DNA from: Candidatus Doudnabacteria bacterium
GTDB lineage: Bacteria; Patescibacteriota; Doudnabacteria; UBA920
Length of the DNA stretch: 51,599 nt
Reading direction: 5' to 3'
Assembly: GCA_023245995.1 (NCBI GenBank)
Contig: JAHFJH010000005.1
Coordinates: 1-51,599 of the forward strand
The translations under genes were made by a program, and so were the position numbers. This document shows, piece after piece, positions 261 through 4,843 of this stretch (its first letter is position 1; each line of letters starts with the position of its first letter). The notes under the pieces were generated by a model. That model was given only the letters and a program-made list of their open reading frames with translations, had not been told where the DNA came from and did not search any database.

Positions 261-1901
261 TTATTTGCGCCTAATGTGTTTTTCGTAGTAGTCCATGGTG
301 GCGTCTACTTTTTTGTGAGGGTTAAATATGTTTAGCGGGTCAAAAATTTTTTTAGTTTGGCGGAACAGTTCCATTATGTCTGGACCAAACATTTTTTCTA
401 AATATGGCCCCCTCACCACTCCGTCGTTGTGTTCTGCGGTAAATGAGCCATGGTACTCCACAATAAGCGCGTACACTTCTGCAGATAGCCTTTCTACCAT
501 GTCTCGTTCGTGTTGTTTGGAGAGGTCCACAAAAGGAATAATATGGAAATTTGCGTCGCCTGCATGGCCTGCAATAGTATACTCAAAACTCGGATAGCGA
601 GCAAAAATGGCGTTTAAGCGGGGCATGAAGCTTGGTAGCTGGTCGGTATGGACAATTATGTCTTCTACAAATGGCGAAGAAATTTTTCCGTGCGCATGTT
701 GGCGAAGCAGGTTAAAACTTTCTCGCCTTACTGTCCAATATTTTTCCGTTTCTTGTTCAGTTTTAGTTATGTGTGTTTCCGCGGAAAAGTTTTTTCGTAT
801 GTCTTCTTCTGCCTCACGTGCTTTTTTTGTCACTTCTGTTTTGTCTTGGCCGGCAAACTCTGCAAGCAAGACAAGTTTTGGCAAGCCACCTCGTAGGCTC
901 ATAAGTGCTTCGGGTAGGAACTGCCACATAAGTTTAAATATGCCCGCACCCATTTTTTTGGCAATGTCTGGCAGGAACCTGAGCGCGAGTTTTAAAGTGT
1001 GATCGTCGTATAGTTCAAAGCTTTGTGGTCGGTGGTTTTTCACTCGCCCAACTATATTGCCCAAGTCTTTGAGGTCTGTAAGAAAAATAACTAGCAGTTC
1101 GCTGTTTGGCTCCACAGGTGCTAAGCGGAATGAAATGTTGGTAATAATTCCCAGAGTTCCCTGTGAACCAACAAAAAGTTTGGTTAAGTCAAAATGTTTG
1201 CCGTCCCAGACTTTCCATAAAAAATAACCAGCAGAGTTTTTGGAGGTAGTTGGTTCGGCTTTTTTTATGGCTTCAAAGTTCGAAGAAATTAAGTGCCAAA
1301 TTTTTTTGTAAGTTTGTCCTTCGAATGTTGGCTCGTTAATTTTTTTTGTAAGTTCTGCTTCGGTTAGTGGCTTTACTGTGTAAAGATTGCCGTCCGAAAG
1401 AATTACGTCTAGGCTTTCTACCCAGTCCACAGTTTGGCCGTAAGCGAGCGACTTTTCTCCCCCTGCGTTATTAGCCACCATACCGCCAACGCCGCAAATC
1501 GACTTGGAGGCAGGGTAACTGGGCATTTCCAAGTTTTGGGCGTGAGTTACTTTTTCTAAGTCTCTATAGTACGCTCCAGGCTCTACTTGTATGGTGTGGC
1601 CTTCTATTTTTCCAATTTGGTTTAAGTGTTTGGTGAAGTCTATAATTATAGACTCGGAAATACTGCCACCTGTCATGTCTGTTCCACCCACGCGCGCAGT
1701 TAAAGACACGTCTTTACCCGCTTGTTTTTCAGTTGTGGTAAAATTTACTAACGCTTTAATGTCTTCCGTGTTTGTTGGTTGCACCACTAGTTCTGGTGTT
1801 GCTTCAAAAATACTTGCGTCGCGACTAAAGTGTTGCCTTGTGACTTCGTCTGAAAGTATTTCACCCTTAAAAGTTTGTTTTAGTTTCTCTACGTCTAACA
1901 T
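261..1901 (-). CDS. FAD-binding oxidoreductase (GlcD/FAD-linked D-lactate dehydrogenase family)
   Basis: ARVGGTDMTGG, GGMVANNAGG and FVGSQGTLGII motifs, plus GHAGDANFH and AEHNDG...FDPLNIFNPHK C-terminal motifs. Confidence 0.9.
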   Translation of the reverse strand: MLDVEKLKQTFKGEILSDEVTRQHFSRDASIFEATPELVVQPTNTEDIKALVNFTTTEKQAGKDVSLTARVGGTDMTGGSISESIIIDFTKHLNQIGKIEGHTIQVEPGAYYRDLEKVTHAQNLEMPSYPASKSICGVGGMVANNAGGEKSLAYGQTVDWVESLDVILSDGNLYTVKPLTEAELTKKINEPTFEGQTYKKIWHLISSNFEAIKKAEPTTSKNSAGYFLWKVWDGKHFDLTKLFVGSQGTLGIITNISFRLAPVEPNSELLVIFLTDLKDLGNIVGRVKNHRPQSFELYDDHTLKLALRFLPDIAKKMGAGIFKLMWQFLPEALMSLRGGLPKLVLLAEFAGQDKTEVTKKAREAEEDIRKNFSAETHITKTEQETEKYWTVRRESFNLLRQHAHGKISSPFVEDIIVHTDQLPSFMPRLNAIFARYPSFEYTIAGHAGDANFHIIPFVDLSKQHERDMVERLSAEVYALIVEYHGSFTAEHNDGVVRGPYLEKMFGPDIMELFRQTKKIFDPLNIFNPHKKVDATMDYYEKHIRRK

Positions 1902-1931
1902 GTATATAGTATAGCAAGTTTTTTAAGTTGA

Positions 1932-1959
1932 TTGACAAAATACAGCTTTAGTTTATAAT
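1932..1959 (+). promoter_or_regulatory. sigma70 promoter
   Basis: Perfect TTGACA (1932-1937) and TATAAT (1954-1959) with a 16-bp spacer; ATG at 1966 lies at the expected transcription start. Confidence 0.8.
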
Positions 1960-1965
1960 CTTTAC

Positions 1966-2046
1966 ATGCAGCAATTAGTAGTTTCCATGTTTTGGCACTA
2001 TAACCTTCTCCACGTTCGTACGGTGGTTGAGTTTGGTGCTGCATAA
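1966..2046 (+). CDS. leader peptide 1 (26 aa, MQQLVVSMFWHYNLLHVRTVVEFGAA), probably leaderless
   Basis: Translated by hand; F-W-H-Y codon cluster; overlaps antiterminator arm 2022-2032. Confidence 0.65.
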   Translation: MQQLVVSMFWHYNLLHVRTVVEFGAA

Positions 2047-2092
2047 ATGTTCCAAATTATACTCAAAGCCACCCTTACAAGCGGTGGTTTTT
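2022..2092 (+). promoter_or_regulatory. attenuator 1 (antiterminator/terminator)
   Basis: Terminator AAAGCCACC (2065-2073)/GGTGGTTTT (2083-2091) plus T-run; GGTGGTTGAGT (2022-2032) is complementary to ACTCAA-AG-CCACC (2061-2073). Confidence 0.7.
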
Positions 2093-2097
2093 ATTTT

Positions 2098-2184
2098 ATG
2101 AACGACATACTTTTACAAGCTATGCATTATTATCTTTGGCTCCTTACTGACCAGTTTGGTGGCTCTTTTGATGTTGGCTTGTGA
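2098..2184 (+). CDS. leader peptide 2 (28 aa, MNDILLQAMHYYLWLLTDQFGGSFDVGL)
   Basis: Starts immediately after terminator 1; H-Y-Y-L-W cluster; overlaps antiterminator arm 2158-2186. Confidence 0.65.
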   Translation: MNDILLQAMHYYLWLLTDQFGGSFDVGL

Positions 2185-2245
2185 GTTTAATTTATATTCA
2201 CTAGGTAACATAAAAACAGCTTCCAAACGGGAAGCTGTTTTATTT
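2158..2245 (+). promoter_or_regulatory. attenuator 2 (antiterminator/terminator)
   Basis: Terminator stem AAAACAGCTTCC (2213-2224)/GGAAGCTGTTTT (2230-2241); GGTGGCTCTTTTGATGTT (2158-2175) can pair with 2207-2224 at 15 of 18 positions. Confidence 0.7.
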
Positions 2246-2290
2246 CGGCCTTTTGGGCCGGTGGCAAACCAATTTTCAGGAGGATTAGGC

Positions 2291-3421
2291 ATGTTTTCAG
2301 TAAGTCCGAAGGTCGATGTTAGTTTGCGCGCCTTACAAGCGCTACACTCGTCTGGGCATTTTGTTGCTCGGTCGTCGCACATTGGTAACCACTACCTTTC
2401 CAACTTGCTTCTGTGGACAGTTGGGCTACCCGCCTTGTTGTTCGACAGGAATTTGTTTCAAAGGGATGTAAATTACCATCCAGGCCACCATATCATTGGG
2501 GGCAAAATAACACCGCTTAATGCTACCAAAGGGCTTGTGCCATTTGGTCGGGATGTGTGTCAGGTTCATTTGGCACCGCTTCGTTCTTTGTTCGCTGGTC
2601 TTTGCCCAACCGAAGCAGAATACTTCTCGGCTCATGCGGACGTGGTGCAGAAGGTCTTTGCGCTTATGGCAAAGCATATGCCTCATGTTTTTGATCGCTA
2701 CTTGTGTGCCTGTGGTGAAGTCTACAAACTGCTCATGAGTGGTAATAATTACGTTGCGGACTGTCCTGCCTGTGGCCGTACTTTACTGCCCTACGACTCC
2801 GTTGCGGAATCGGCCTTTAATTTGGTATTGGGCATAGCAAACGCAGAAAATGGTGGTGGAGGTGCGCAAACGGGTGTGTTGTGGAGCCTGCCGCTTCATT
2901 TGGTGCTTGAGTCTATACTTAACGTACTAGACTCGGGCAAGAATGTTGTTTACCAGCTTTCAGGACCGGACATGATACGCTACACTCGCAACGGTGCTTG
3001 GCTTTCAGAAGTGCGCTGGGTATGGGCCGTCTTGCAAAAACAGGCTCCTGCATACGGCCTTGATTTGCCAGAAGAAATTCATGTGCATGTGGTGCCAACC
3101 GCAGAAATGCGGTTTGGTTACATACAAGGACATGAGGCAGGCCGTTTGGTTGTGGAGGGTTTACTTGGGCTTGAAGCGTACAAGAAGGATCGGACATCGC
3201 CTGCGCGGGCAGATTACTTGGAGCAGGTGCGGACGAACTTAGCAGGCTGGAATGTGTTTTACGACATTCAAGACCCAACGTCCTGGCCTTGCAGTCATCA
3301 CGACTTGGCCCACAACAGACTTACCTTGGTAATACCCGAGGTGGTAATGAACATGAATATGGAAGCTGTGCGAAGGTTGTTCTCTGACTCGCAGAGCAGG
3401 TTGTTTAAATCGCGACATTGA
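2291..3421 (+). CDS. hypothetical protein with HIGN motif and CxC...CxxC knuckle (possible HUP/class I aaRS-like fold)
   Basis: AGGAGG at 2278-2283 before ATG 2291; 376-aa ORF with SSHIGNHY, YLCACG...DCPACG and YQLSGPDMIRY. Confidence 0.7.
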   Translation: MFSVSPKVDVSLRALQALHSSGHFVARSSHIGNHYLSNLLLWTVGLPALLFDRNLFQRDVNYHPGHHIIGGKITPLNATKGLVPFGRDVCQVHLAPLRSLFAGLCPTEAEYFSAHADVVQKVFALMAKHMPHVFDRYLCACGEVYKLLMSGNNYVADCPACGRTLLPYDSVAESAFNLVLGIANAENGGGGAQTGVLWSLPLHLVLESILNVLDSGKNVVYQLSGPDMIRYTRNGAWLSEVRWVWAVLQKQAPAYGLDLPEEIHVHVVPTAEMRFGYIQGHEAGRLVVEGLLGLEAYKKDRTSPARADYLEQVRTNLAGWNVFYDIQDPTSWPCSHHDLAHNRLTLVIPEVVMNMNMEAVRRLFSDSQSRLFKSRH

Positions 3422-3504
3422 CTTGTTGGTGCGCGCGGTTTGTGGGGGTAGTAGTTACTGCCCCCAAATTTCTCACATATGTAGTATTATTATTTAATAA
3501 AGTT

Positions 3505-4491
3505 ATGGAGATTATTATTTCTGAAAAATTAAAGACAGGAGATGAGGTGCGTGTAATTGCTCCGTCTTGCGCTAAGGGTACTTTAAGCTCTTCTGTGATA
3601 GAAGCAGGCGAAGCTGAACTGCGTAGGCTTGGGCTTGTTGTAAGTTGGGGCGAGAATTCTCATATTATAGACAGTTTTGAGTGTGCGCCAATTGCTACGC
3701 GTGTTGCAGATTTGCACGCTGCGTTTTTAGATAAGAATGTAAAAGCAATTTTAGCTGTGCGAGGGGGTTTTTATGCCAATCAGCTTTTAGACTACATAGA
3801 CTGGAATATAATAAAAAACAACCCTAAGGTCTTTTGCGGTTTTTCGGACATTACGGTTTTGCAAAATGCTATGTTAGCTCGGACAGGTCTGGTTAGTTAT
3901 TCGGGTCCAAATTTAAGTTACATAGGTAAGTCCGGAACGCTTGGTTATACTTTAGATTATTTTAAGAAATGTTTGTTTAGCGACGAACCATTTAAGGTGC
4001 AGCCGTCAGACGTCTTTCAAAGTTTTGACTCGCAGGAAGGAATGCAAATAAATAAAAATAGTGGGTGGTATGCCTTGCAGGACGGGGAAGCACTAGGAAC
4101 AATTGTCGGGGGTAACTTATGCACGTTGAACTTACTTCAGGGGACAAAGTATATGCCTTCGTTGCAGAACTCAATTTTGTTTTTAGAAGACGATGTGGAG
4201 TCTAAGTATAGGGATTTTGACAGAAATTTTCAGTCTTTAATTCACTTACCAGAATTTACGGGCGTGAAGGGCATACTTTTTGGACGGTTCCAAGACGGCA
4301 GTAAAATTACTAAAGAAATGTTACAAAGTATGGTGGCTATTCGTCCGGAGTTGCGGCATGTGCCCATACTTGCAAATGTAGACTTTGGTCATACAGAACC
4401 AAAATTAACTTTCCCAATAGGCGGCACTGCACGTTTAGTTGTAAATATTCTAAAACCACAGTTGTCCGGCGTTGAAATACTTACACATTAG
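3505..4491 (+). CDS. LD-carboxypeptidase / MccF-like peptidase S66
   Basis: VIAPS, RGGFYANQLL, GFSDIT (Ser), GGNL, LFLED (Glu) and DFGH (His) motifs; start reassigned to ATG 3505. Confidence 0.92.
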   Translation: MEIIISEKLKTGDEVRVIAPSCAKGTLSSSVIEAGEAELRRLGLVVSWGENSHIIDSFECAPIATRVADLHAAFLDKNVKAILAVRGGFYANQLLDYIDWNIIKNNPKVFCGFSDITVLQNAMLARTGLVSYSGPNLSYIGKSGTLGYTLDYFKKCLFSDEPFKVQPSDVFQSFDSQEGMQINKNSGWYALQDGEALGTIVGGNLCTLNLLQGTKYMPSLQNSILFLEDDVESKYRDFDRNFQSLIHLPEFTGVKGILFGRFQDGSKITKEMLQSMVAIRPELRHVPILANVDFGHTEPKLTFPIGGTARLVVNILKPQLSGVEILTH

Positions 4492-4507: not shown

Positions 4508-4538
4508 AAAAAATTACCCAAACTTTGGGTAATTTTTT
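4508..4538. terminator. bidirectional intrinsic terminator
   Basis: AAAAAATTACCCAAA-C-TTTGGGTAATTTTTT between convergent genes. Confidence 0.7.
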
Positions 4539-4543
4539 ATAGT

Positions 4544-4843
4544 TTAGTGCGTAGTTGGTGGTTGGAAGTGGCTGGCGAAAGCAGGGGCTATATGGCTATC
4601 TACTTTGTCTGAACTTATGCCGAAGTCGTTATGGTCGTCTTTTAGTTTGTACATCCAGCGGTGCATAGCGTCGCCGTCTATAGTGTTATCGCCATGCCGA
4701 GCCATGCCTCTGGCCTCACCTGTAAGATAGGTAAATTGCTGGTTGTTGATGTGGCCTTCGCGTTTGAGCTCATCTAAGCTTTTTTCAATGTCTGCTAGAG
4801 GCACATGCTTACTGCCGTGCTCTGTAAATAAACTAAAGTCCAT
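4544..4843 (-). CDS. hypothetical protein
   Basis: 99-aa ORF filling the intergenic space and ending at the terminator. Confidence 0.65.
   Translation of the reverse strand: MDFSLFTEHGSKHVPLADIEKSLDELKREGHINNQQFTYLTGEARGMARHGDNTIDGDAMHRWMYKLKDDHNDFGISSDKVDSHIAPAFASHFQPPTTH

Follow-up and report, generated by a model that had tools for sequence, protein, structure and literature searches.

A probable pair of serial leader-peptide attenuators ahead of a predicted synthetase-like gene in a Doudnabacteria genome

The DNA examined here, called the window below, is a 51,599-nucleotide stretch from Candidatus Doudnabacteria bacterium (Patescibacteriota; assembly GCA_023245995.1, contig JAHFJH010000005.1, positions 1 to 51,599). 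Upstream of an unnamed plus-strand gene that we call X, positions 1932-2290 are probably an operon leader with two ribosome-mediated transcription attenuators in series, which would sense the supply of aromatic aminoacyl-tRNAs, centred on that of Trp. An earlier note on this DNA had proposed two such attenuators with aromatic and His sensing codons, and three independent lines of evidence support the proposal: conservation of the arrangement before homologs of X, folding of the leader RNA with a ribosome masking part of it, and a parallel leader before hisS in the same genome. All of this support is computational, drawn from sequence, from folding models and from comparison across relatives, and we infer from it the translation of the upstream open reading frames (uORFs), the loading of ribosomes on the second of them, the signal and the function of X.

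The source genome, G000, is 0.95 Mb in size and 96% complete, and the window is its contig C25. Relatives are labelled as follows: G001 and G002 belong to the same genus; G020, G011, G093 and G095 belong to the same taxonomic family and carry more distant X members; L009, L010/L011 and L012 denote four metagenome contigs whose X homologs are about 27-33% identical (tblastn).

Layout of the leader and the proposed switch

The leader contains the following features.

1932-1959, plus strand: perfect sigma-70-type promoter (12/12), with -35 box TTGACA at 1932-1937, a 16-nucleotide spacer and -10 box TATAAT at 1954-1959
1966-2046, plus strand: uORF1, 26 codons plus TAA, predicted leader peptide
1990-2001, plus strand: aromatic cluster F-W-H-Y of uORF1, codons 9-12, Trp codon at 1993-1995
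2005-2031, plus strand: predicted anti-antiterminator hairpin 1, pairing 2005-2007/2029-2031 plus 2010-2015/2020-2026; minimum free energy (MFE) structure without a ribosome
2010-2087, plus strand: predicted antiterminator 1, imperfect helix 2010-2039/2049-2087, overlapping both arms of terminator 1
2065-2097, plus strand: predicted terminator 1, stem-loop 2065-2091, -11.5 kcal/mol, with a U-rich tail to 2097
2098-2184, plus strand: uORF2, 28 codons plus TGA, predicted leader peptide, its ATG right after the U tract of terminator 1
2125-2139, plus strand: cluster H-Y-Y-L-W of uORF2, codons 10-14, Trp codon at 2137-2139
2138-2164, plus strand: predicted anti-antiterminator hairpin 2, pairing 2138-2143/2158-2164 plus 2146-2148/2153-2155; the fold with the A site at codon 10
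2151-2231, plus strand: predicted antiterminator 2, a 30-bp imperfect helix 2151-2186/2196-2231 that includes the 5' arm and loop of terminator 2
2214-2245, plus strand: predicted terminator 2, stem-loop 2214-2240, -15.5 kcal/mol, with a U-rich tail; almost unchanged in G001 and G002
2245-2261, plus strand: small G+C hairpin between terminator 2 and the ribosome-binding site
2278-2283, plus strand: Shine-Dalgarno sequence AGGAGG, preceding the ATG of gene X at 2291

The promoter is the sole perfect one among four promoter-like sites in 1500-4000. Its -10 box lies 6 nucleotides before the uORF1 ATG at 1966; judged from this spacing, the transcript is expected to begin at or beside A1966, giving a leaderless mRNA. 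A leaderless start is supported by the recurrence of such spacing at the leaders of relatives, at hisS and at trpS. The leaders of relatives have a TTGACA-type -35 box, and the -10 box stands 6-10 nucleotides before the ATG in G001, G002, L011, L012, G011, G093 and G095, and 14 nucleotides before it in L009. The canonical trpS of the source genome (L019 1440-1500, contig C40) itself appears leaderless, with TATAAT 6 nucleotides before its ATG, the same spacing as at uORF1, which suggests that leaderless mRNAs are common in this genome.

In the mechanism that we propose, transcription would begin at or next to the uORF1 start codon, and in each unit the RNA would form either the terminator or the longer antiterminator helix, which takes up the 5' arm of the terminator. 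In untranslated RNA, a small upstream hairpin would occupy the antiterminator strand, leaving the terminator to form. A ribosome running through the uORF would cover the antiterminator strand or let the upstream hairpin re-form, and transcription would again stop at the terminator. A ribosome held on the aromatic codons (F-W-H-Y in unit 1, Y-Y-L-W in unit 2) would open the upstream hairpin and free the antiterminator strand, resulting in read-through. The operon would be turned on when charged tRNA-Trp, and probably also tRNA-Tyr, -Phe and -His, becomes scarce; Trp is the only cluster residue found in all relatives. Both terminators would have to be passed, so that read-through would be the product of two like decisions, with low leak and a steeper response. 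The earlier note had left the choice between an AND gate and a steepened sensor; since the two units have codons of one kind, we favour a multiplicative, steeper sensor over a gate that combines two signals. The locus may in addition be linked to host nutrient supply.

Most of what that note had read directly from the letters holds. The perfect promoter with an ATG at the expected +1 is confirmed, the leaderless start has the support given above, and both leaders, of 26 and 28 residues, lie where they had been placed. The complementarities are found as parts of longer helices: 2022-2032 of leader 1 pairs with 2061-2073 inside the helix of antiterminator 1, and the pairing of leader 2, given as 2158-2186/2196-2224, belongs to the slightly longer helix of antiterminator 2. 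The terminators of the window and of its relatives were located by a search for a hairpin plus T run; at terminator 2 the DNA has a perfect 12-nucleotide inverted repeat (2213-2224/2230-2241). The statement that the two units are unrelated in sequence stands only in part. They have a common 9-mer at an equivalent place (2030-2038 and 2153-2161), and uORF1 can be weakly aligned to the one leader present in G001 and G002, so unit 1 is probably an old duplicate.

The TAA of uORF1 (2044-2046) abuts an ATG at 2047 that is in frame with both uORF1 and uORF2. The frame 1966-2184 is open save for the uORF1 stop, and the ATG at 2047 gives a 45-amino-acid ORF, 2047-2184, with the same end as uORF2. Ribosomes could possibly enter uORF2 by re-initiation at this ATG and translation through terminator 1, or by starting directly within the U-rich stretch; in G020, too, the second uORF begins right behind a U tract.

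A hairpin at the place of 2245-2261 is also present, with a different sequence, in G002, G011, G093 and G095 (in a side listing, at L002, L003, L016, L017 and L028). Its 5' half in the window (2249-2255) could instead pair with the Shine-Dalgarno region at 2277-2283. The window stretch is present in groundwater metagenome runs; on mapping of metagenome assemblies, one contig of run X2 covers 2144-2500, and runs X1 and X3 gave nothing there.

Conservation, ribosome-masked folding and the alternatives

The comparison set comprises 12 homologous units from eight loci. A DNA search of 40 relatives gave real matches only in G001 and G002, limited to 2131-2287 (77-79% identity, BLASTN) and the -35 region; weak matches of 24-36 nucleotides in G018 and G022 (E about 5e-4) are probably due to chance. 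The X proteins of G001 and G002 are 58-60% identical to that of the window, and their loci have the same order: a divergent FAD-oxidase gene, a TTGACA promoter 6-7 nucleotides before the ATG, a single leader, a terminator, a small hairpin, a ribosome-binding site and X. This single leader is homologous to uORF2, and the window carries about 132 nucleotides more, which correspond to unit 1. At the distant loci (the four contigs and the four family genomes), a TTGACA/TTGACG-type promoter precedes an ATG that lies 6-14 nucleotides past the -10 box and opens a uORF; behind it stand a terminator, the ribosome-binding site and the X-family gene.

Every one of the 12 units has, in the same place, an ATG-started uORF of 26-37 codons that ends before the terminator, and an intrinsic terminator between uORF and gene. 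The genome G020 also has tandem units, whose two uORFs are alike in the second half and whose terminator stems differ in sequence, and the terminator stems of G011 and G093 differ from each other by paired, compensatory changes. Conservation upstream of homologs, to which the earlier note had looked, is therefore found for uORF, Trp-centred cluster, antiterminator and terminator, all retained down to about 27-33% protein identity. No evident leader was found at L022 (genome G172), where a 519-amino-acid protein is a more distant match to X.

A Trp codon is present in 12/12 units, compared with a background frequency of 0.417 among 2307 ATG-started ORFs of 24-40 codons in the source genome. Relative to long ORFs, the leaders are enriched in codons for Trp (4.1-fold), Cys (3.8-fold), His (2.6-fold) and Phe (2.1-fold), with Tyr at 1.0-fold.

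The leader as a whole is strongly structured (z = -3.33, with 0/100 shuffles folding as well), as might also be expected of an element that acts as RNA only: a riboswitch-like or protein-binding leader, or small RNA genes that end at terminators 1 and 2, the ORFs being incidental. Attenuator-terminated transcripts do serve as small RNAs elsewhere (PMC6614838; this and all papers cited below are drawn on in extract). Against such an element stand the frame that opens 6-14 nucleotides after the -10 box and closes before the terminator in all 12 units, and the enrichment of Trp and other aromatic codons, which is not expected in untranslated RNA. Nor is there an Rfam family match, or an aptamer-like core common to the subfamilies: a search of 1500-3000 at E up to 10 gave seven rows, none above any cut-off, with the T-box covariance model absent among them. 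ARAGORN predicted no tRNA or tmRNA (transfer-messenger RNA) genes in the window. We consider an RNA-only element the least probable of the explanations weighed here.

Folding in the presence of a ribosome bears on the attenuator reading most directly. In our switch model, folding was confined to RNA on the 3' side of the ribosome footprint (A site -15 to +12), for each position of the A site. It replaced an earlier masking model in which base pairs could span the ribosome, and the helices enclosing the ribosome that this gave were rejected as artefacts. Without a ribosome, the terminator is favoured in both window units (P = 0.92). For unit 1, P(terminator) drops to 0.0-0.4 while the A site occupies codons 7-12 (S, M, F, W, H, Y) and is 0.8-0.9 for all other positions; antiterminator 1 is the MFE structure with the A site at codons 9-12 and is gone from codon 13 on. 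For unit 2, the corresponding values are 0.2-0.6 over codons 11-15 (Y, Y, L, W, L) and 0.8-1.0 for codon 16 and later positions. In both units, folded with and without masked segments as the earlier note had suggested, the aromatic codons fall in the read-through window of the model.

The same behaviour recurs among relatives. A switch-like profile was obtained for 9/12 real units versus 15/300 dinucleotide shuffles of the upstream part; among the shuffles of the window units, 2/25 showed a switch for unit 1 and 0/25 for unit 2. The earlier note had compared the placing of the aromatic codons before the antiterminator arm with the geometry of trp-, his- and phe-type attenuators. In the nine units, the terminator has a probability of at most 0.5 when a Trp codon is in the A site (in L011, the codon after Trp), and this value reaches at least 0.75 for good 1-5 codons past it. 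With one unit taken per lineage, 6/7 have Trp within three codons of the switch (estimated P = 4.6e-4). Codons for Trp, Tyr, Phe or His make up 30/45 of those in the five positions before the switch, versus 34/212 elsewhere in the leaders and 11% in long ORFs.

A third line of evidence comes from the source genome itself, which we scanned for a short ORF followed by a terminator and a gene with a ribosome-binding site. Fifteen rows at seven loci were found among 296 terminator-like sites, and the window locus was recovered. The clearest parallel lies before hisS (identified by PF13393, E 2.3e-41):

contig C47, locus L030 1435-1625, minus strand: hisS leader, TTGACT/17/TATAAT 7 nucleotides before a 16-codon leaderless uORF, then a terminator

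Four His codons lie within the last seven codons of this uORF, and modelled P(terminator) stays at 0.0-0.2 while codons 9-12 occupy the A site, then rises to 0.7-0.9 at codon 13 and beyond. It therefore seems that the organism regulates a synthetase gene by leaderless leader-peptide attenuation with cognate codons, and the like behaviour of the hisS leader in the model supports the reading of the window as two attenuators. No attenuator was found at the canonical trpS of the genome.

The scan also turned up a candidate leader-peptide attenuator before a GNAT acetyltransferase gene (contig C22, locus L031, minus strand, upstream of 208-804). There, TTGACT/17/TATAAT stands 7 nucleotides before a 36-codon ORF with no obvious codon bias, after which come a strong terminator (-17.8 kcal/mol) and the ribosome-binding site GGAGGA. 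The same pattern of short ORF, terminator and gene was returned for contigs C41 (L032), C3, C10 and C51, and some of these rows look like the ends of upstream genes together with the terminators of those genes.

The same RNA switch could also be worked by arrest peptides, of which the TnaC, ErmCL, BmrB and MsrD leaders are examples. The nascent aromatic segment would then stall the ribosome, alone or with a small molecule or antibiotic, and the signal would be a drug or ligand and not tRNA charging. Most leaders do have a single Trp codon with conserved aromatic neighbours, X beside an S66 peptidase gene could be a resistance pair, and antibiotic-sensing ribosome-mediated attenuation is known (PMC4191407, 10.1101/2021.11.29.470318). 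However, the order and spacing of the aromatic residues vary between loci while their composition and distance to the antiterminator are retained, which fits codon sensing rather than a peptide motif, and hisS in the same genome uses a plain His-codon leader. TnaC stalls at the stop codon, and with the ribosome at that position our model yields the terminator in 12/12 units (P = 0.9-1.0). We regard an arrest peptide as unlikely.

Alternatively, the uORFs could encode functional small peptides, either membrane proteins or precursors processed by X and its neighbouring peptidase. The hairpins would in that case be ordinary partial terminators, fixing how much peptide mRNA is made relative to enzyme mRNA, like those that follow lantibiotic precursor genes. 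The C-terminal part of the peptide is conserved among the window, G001 and G002, and between G093 and G095; tandem copies occur in two lineages; and X is an uncharacterised ligase-like enzyme adjoining a peptidase. The conservation, however, is at the nucleotide level, includes third positions and coincides with the antiterminator strands. The peptides are not alignable across the wider family, where the RNA logic and the aromatic cluster are retained, the switch behaviour is far above that of shuffles, and no typical peptide-cluster transporter or protease lies beside the genes examined. A functional peptide is on this evidence very improbable. The idea of a precursor peptide suggested by a Gly-Gly motif in uORF2 was ranked low on the same counter-evidence.

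Several points weigh against the attenuator reading. The window leaders have one Trp codon each, unlike the classical trp, his and phe leaders, in which one codon is repeated in a run. Like the second uORF of G020, uORF2 has neither a Shine-Dalgarno sequence nor a promoter of its own, and the model predicts permanent termination if it is untranslated. A simple terminator scan of 1500-4000 listed only 3382-3396 and missed terminators 1 and 2, because their T run is absorbed into the stem. The best of the Rfam rows, Phe_leader (RF01859), reached 26.0 bits at 2152-2244, against a cut-off of 55, and this sub-threshold match rests on hairpin and terminator shape.

Other such points concern the model and the statistics. 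Both the footprint limits and the use of equilibrium folding were assumed in the model; the [FYH]-near-Trp motif and the five-codon window were chosen after inspection of the data; and the units are kin by descent, so counts across them overstate independence. In three of the 12 units (G002, L012 and G020 unit 1), the terminator persists at equilibrium wherever the ribosome is placed. In these three, the 5' arm of the terminator is pre-paired upstream (P 0.6-0.9) until 4-5 codons after Trp, which would allow a kinetic switch in the model. When the upstream RNA was tested for duplex formation with just the 5' arm of the terminator, 9/12 units did no better than shuffles: the result was significant only for L009, L011 and L012 (p 0.003-0.023), marginal for unit 1 (0.09) and G002 (0.07), and not significant for unit 2 (p 0.40), G001, both units of G020, G011, G093 and G095. 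We judge this test too narrow, because the antiterminators use more than the 5' arm.

Gene X, its peptidase partner and the surrounding genome

The genes around the leader are the following.

261-1901, minus strand: FAD-linked oxidase gene, divergent from the leader and separated from gene X by a 389-nucleotide spacer
2291-3421, plus strand: gene X, 376 amino acids, predicted class-I aminoacyl-tRNA-synthetase-like Rossmann fold with an HIGN motif and a Cys-rich insertion
3505-4491, plus strand: Peptidase S66 (LD-carboxypeptidase family) gene, conserved 3' partner of X

Sequence searches left X without a name. It has no Pfam and no NCBIfam family; nine other members of its family are likewise without a Pfam family, and against NCBIfam the nine gave only two chance-level rows (E 0.08-0.09), far below the cut-off. 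There was no sequence match in the PDB, the ESM Atlas (best score 0.77) gave no name, hhalign of X against the TrpRS and TyrRS of the source genome gave probabilities of 0.2% and 1.0%, respectively, and a scan of viral contigs found no relative.

The structural model is more informative. The AlphaFold2 model of X (predicted local distance difference test, pLDDT, 87.6) was aligned by VIA-align to BshC (4wbd_A, Z 9.7, root-mean-square deviation 4.5 over 250 aligned residues) and to class I LysRS (1irx_B, Z 8.4, 4.6 over 234), followed by GlnRS, ArgRS and GluRS (Z 5-6.6) and then, at about Z 5, by TyrRS and TrpRS. Foldseek also placed 1irx_B first, weakly (E 0.022). On this modelled structure, X is predicted to have a class-I aminoacyl-tRNA-synthetase-like fold. 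Residues H30, G32 and N33 (H-x-G-N, HIGN in the window) are invariant in 21 family sequences and form a variant of the HIGH motif like that of the TrpRS of the source genome. As for KMSKS, no conserved Lys-containing motif was found among the invariant or near-invariant columns of the family alignment. Only in the closer set of X proteins is there an invariant R-F pair, which follows V-P-T. The earlier description of the controlled gene as no recognisable biosynthetic enzyme agrees with this fold.

The gene is rare. Seven proteins match at E <=1e-3 in an index of 5.8 billion proteins, and X is present in 7/146 genomes of the order and 3/401 sampled genomes of the phylum; with a profile, 427 clusters (50% identity) were retrieved. 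A longer X, represented by database proteins of 416-419 amino acids for X and two homologs and starting within uORF2 (window 2171-2290), was rejected as a calling artefact because the extension reads the terminator 2 hairpin as protein and its frame is closed in G001.

The S66 peptidase gene follows X in 7/7 X-bearing genomes of the order (the window, G001, G002, G020, G011, G093 and G095). At three distant metagenome loci, X is followed by a Peptidase M19 dipeptidase and an Asp/Glu-type racemase. At all loci examined (window, L009, L011, L012, L014, L015, L016, L017, L021 and L028), the X family is thus followed by a peptidase for bonds to D-amino acids, and X and the peptidase look like a conserved functional module. 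The 83-nucleotide gap between X and the S66 gene in the window contains a weak hairpin, and the two genes overlap in G020; the S66 gene is probably in the same operon as X. Between the S66 gene and a convergent minus-strand ORF (4544-4843) lies a perfect hairpin at about 4508-4540, preceded by an A run and followed by a T run, which looks like a bidirectional terminator.

The families TrpA, chorismate-binding (TrpE-type) and histidinol dehydrogenase (HisD) were not found in the 96%-complete source genome, in keeping with the earlier view of a lineage without amino-acid biosynthesis. For the function of the operon we offer a speculative proposal that we think more likely wrong than right. X might be a Trp- or aromatic-specific synthetase-like enzyme, serving as an auxiliary tRNA-charging enzyme or an amino-acid ligase. 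Together with L,D-peptidases (S66, or M19 plus racemase), it might form a starvation-induced module that salvages aromatic residues from peptides with D-amino acids, for example host peptides of the cell-wall type, or that counters a host-made TrpRS inhibitor. The doubled attenuator would keep this module off until charging falls.

If the attenuation reading is true, reduced bacteria monitor tRNA charging directly: a textbook mechanism known from few phyla would be at work at two loci of a 0.95-Mb genome in which no Trp or His synthesis families were found. The leader codons suggest which amino acids matter for the unnamed X family, with its 427 clusters and no Pfam family. The doubling, which appears to be independent in the window and G020, would be a natural case of serial same-signal attenuators.

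Comparison with known leader-peptide systems

In the enterobacterial trp, his and pheA attenuators, termination follows full translation of the leader and also occurs if the leader is untranslated. The leader-peptide attenuators of amino-acid operons have been described in general terms (PMC1183508). The window resembles these classical systems in its short predicted leader ORFs with regulatory codons and in its mutually exclusive anti-antiterminator, antiterminator and terminator. Unlike them, it controls an aminoacyl-tRNA-synthetase-like gene in an organism without Trp or His synthesis families found, has one Trp in a mixed Trp/Tyr/Phe/His cluster, a predicted leaderless mRNA and two serial units, and shows no sequence or Rfam kinship with them.

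Attenuators also precede synthetase genes. TrpRS1 of Streptomyces coelicolor is reportedly controlled by attenuation through Trp codons, and an extract on this enzyme describes it as inducible and indolmycin-resistant (PMC9437257). Attenuators have further been reported before pheST in gamma-proteobacteria and before trpS and leuS in Streptomyces (PMC1262725), and, in bacilli, a His leader has been reported upstream of a hisS paralog and of hisZ (PMC2965389). According to the extract of the latter paper, leader-peptide systems were known in 2010 only in Proteobacteria and Actinobacteria, to which it added the bacilli. In our limited collection of literature, we found no report of transcription attenuation in Saccharibacteria, nor of a leader peptide with a terminator in Patescibacteria. 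As at these synthetase genes, the window leader would induce an auxiliary enzyme as charging falls, and the hisS leader of the source genome would be a plain example of the class. The differences are that X is no recognisable synthetase, that the canonical trpS of the genome is without an attenuator and that the lineage is another one.

Leaderless polycysteine uORFs act as attenuators in mycobacteria (10.1101/834739). Compared by description only, and from an extract, they too are leaderless short first cistrons whose codons match the sensed amino acid; the amino acid and the phylum differ.

For the tandem arrangement, the nearest comparison is the mgtCBR leader of Salmonella, in which mgtM senses ATP and mgtP proline-charged tRNA, with additive effects (PMC3641672). 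In that leader, and as predicted for the window, each of two short ORFs governs its own choice of stem-loops and controls transcription into the coding region. Unlike those of mgtCBR, the two units of the window carry the same type of codons and a full predicted intrinsic terminator each, and the expected effect is multiplicative on one signal. New in the present case are the lineage, a proposed mixed aromatic sensor with a single invariant Trp, a same-signal doubling that recurs, and a predicted synthetase-like target paired with L,D-peptidases.

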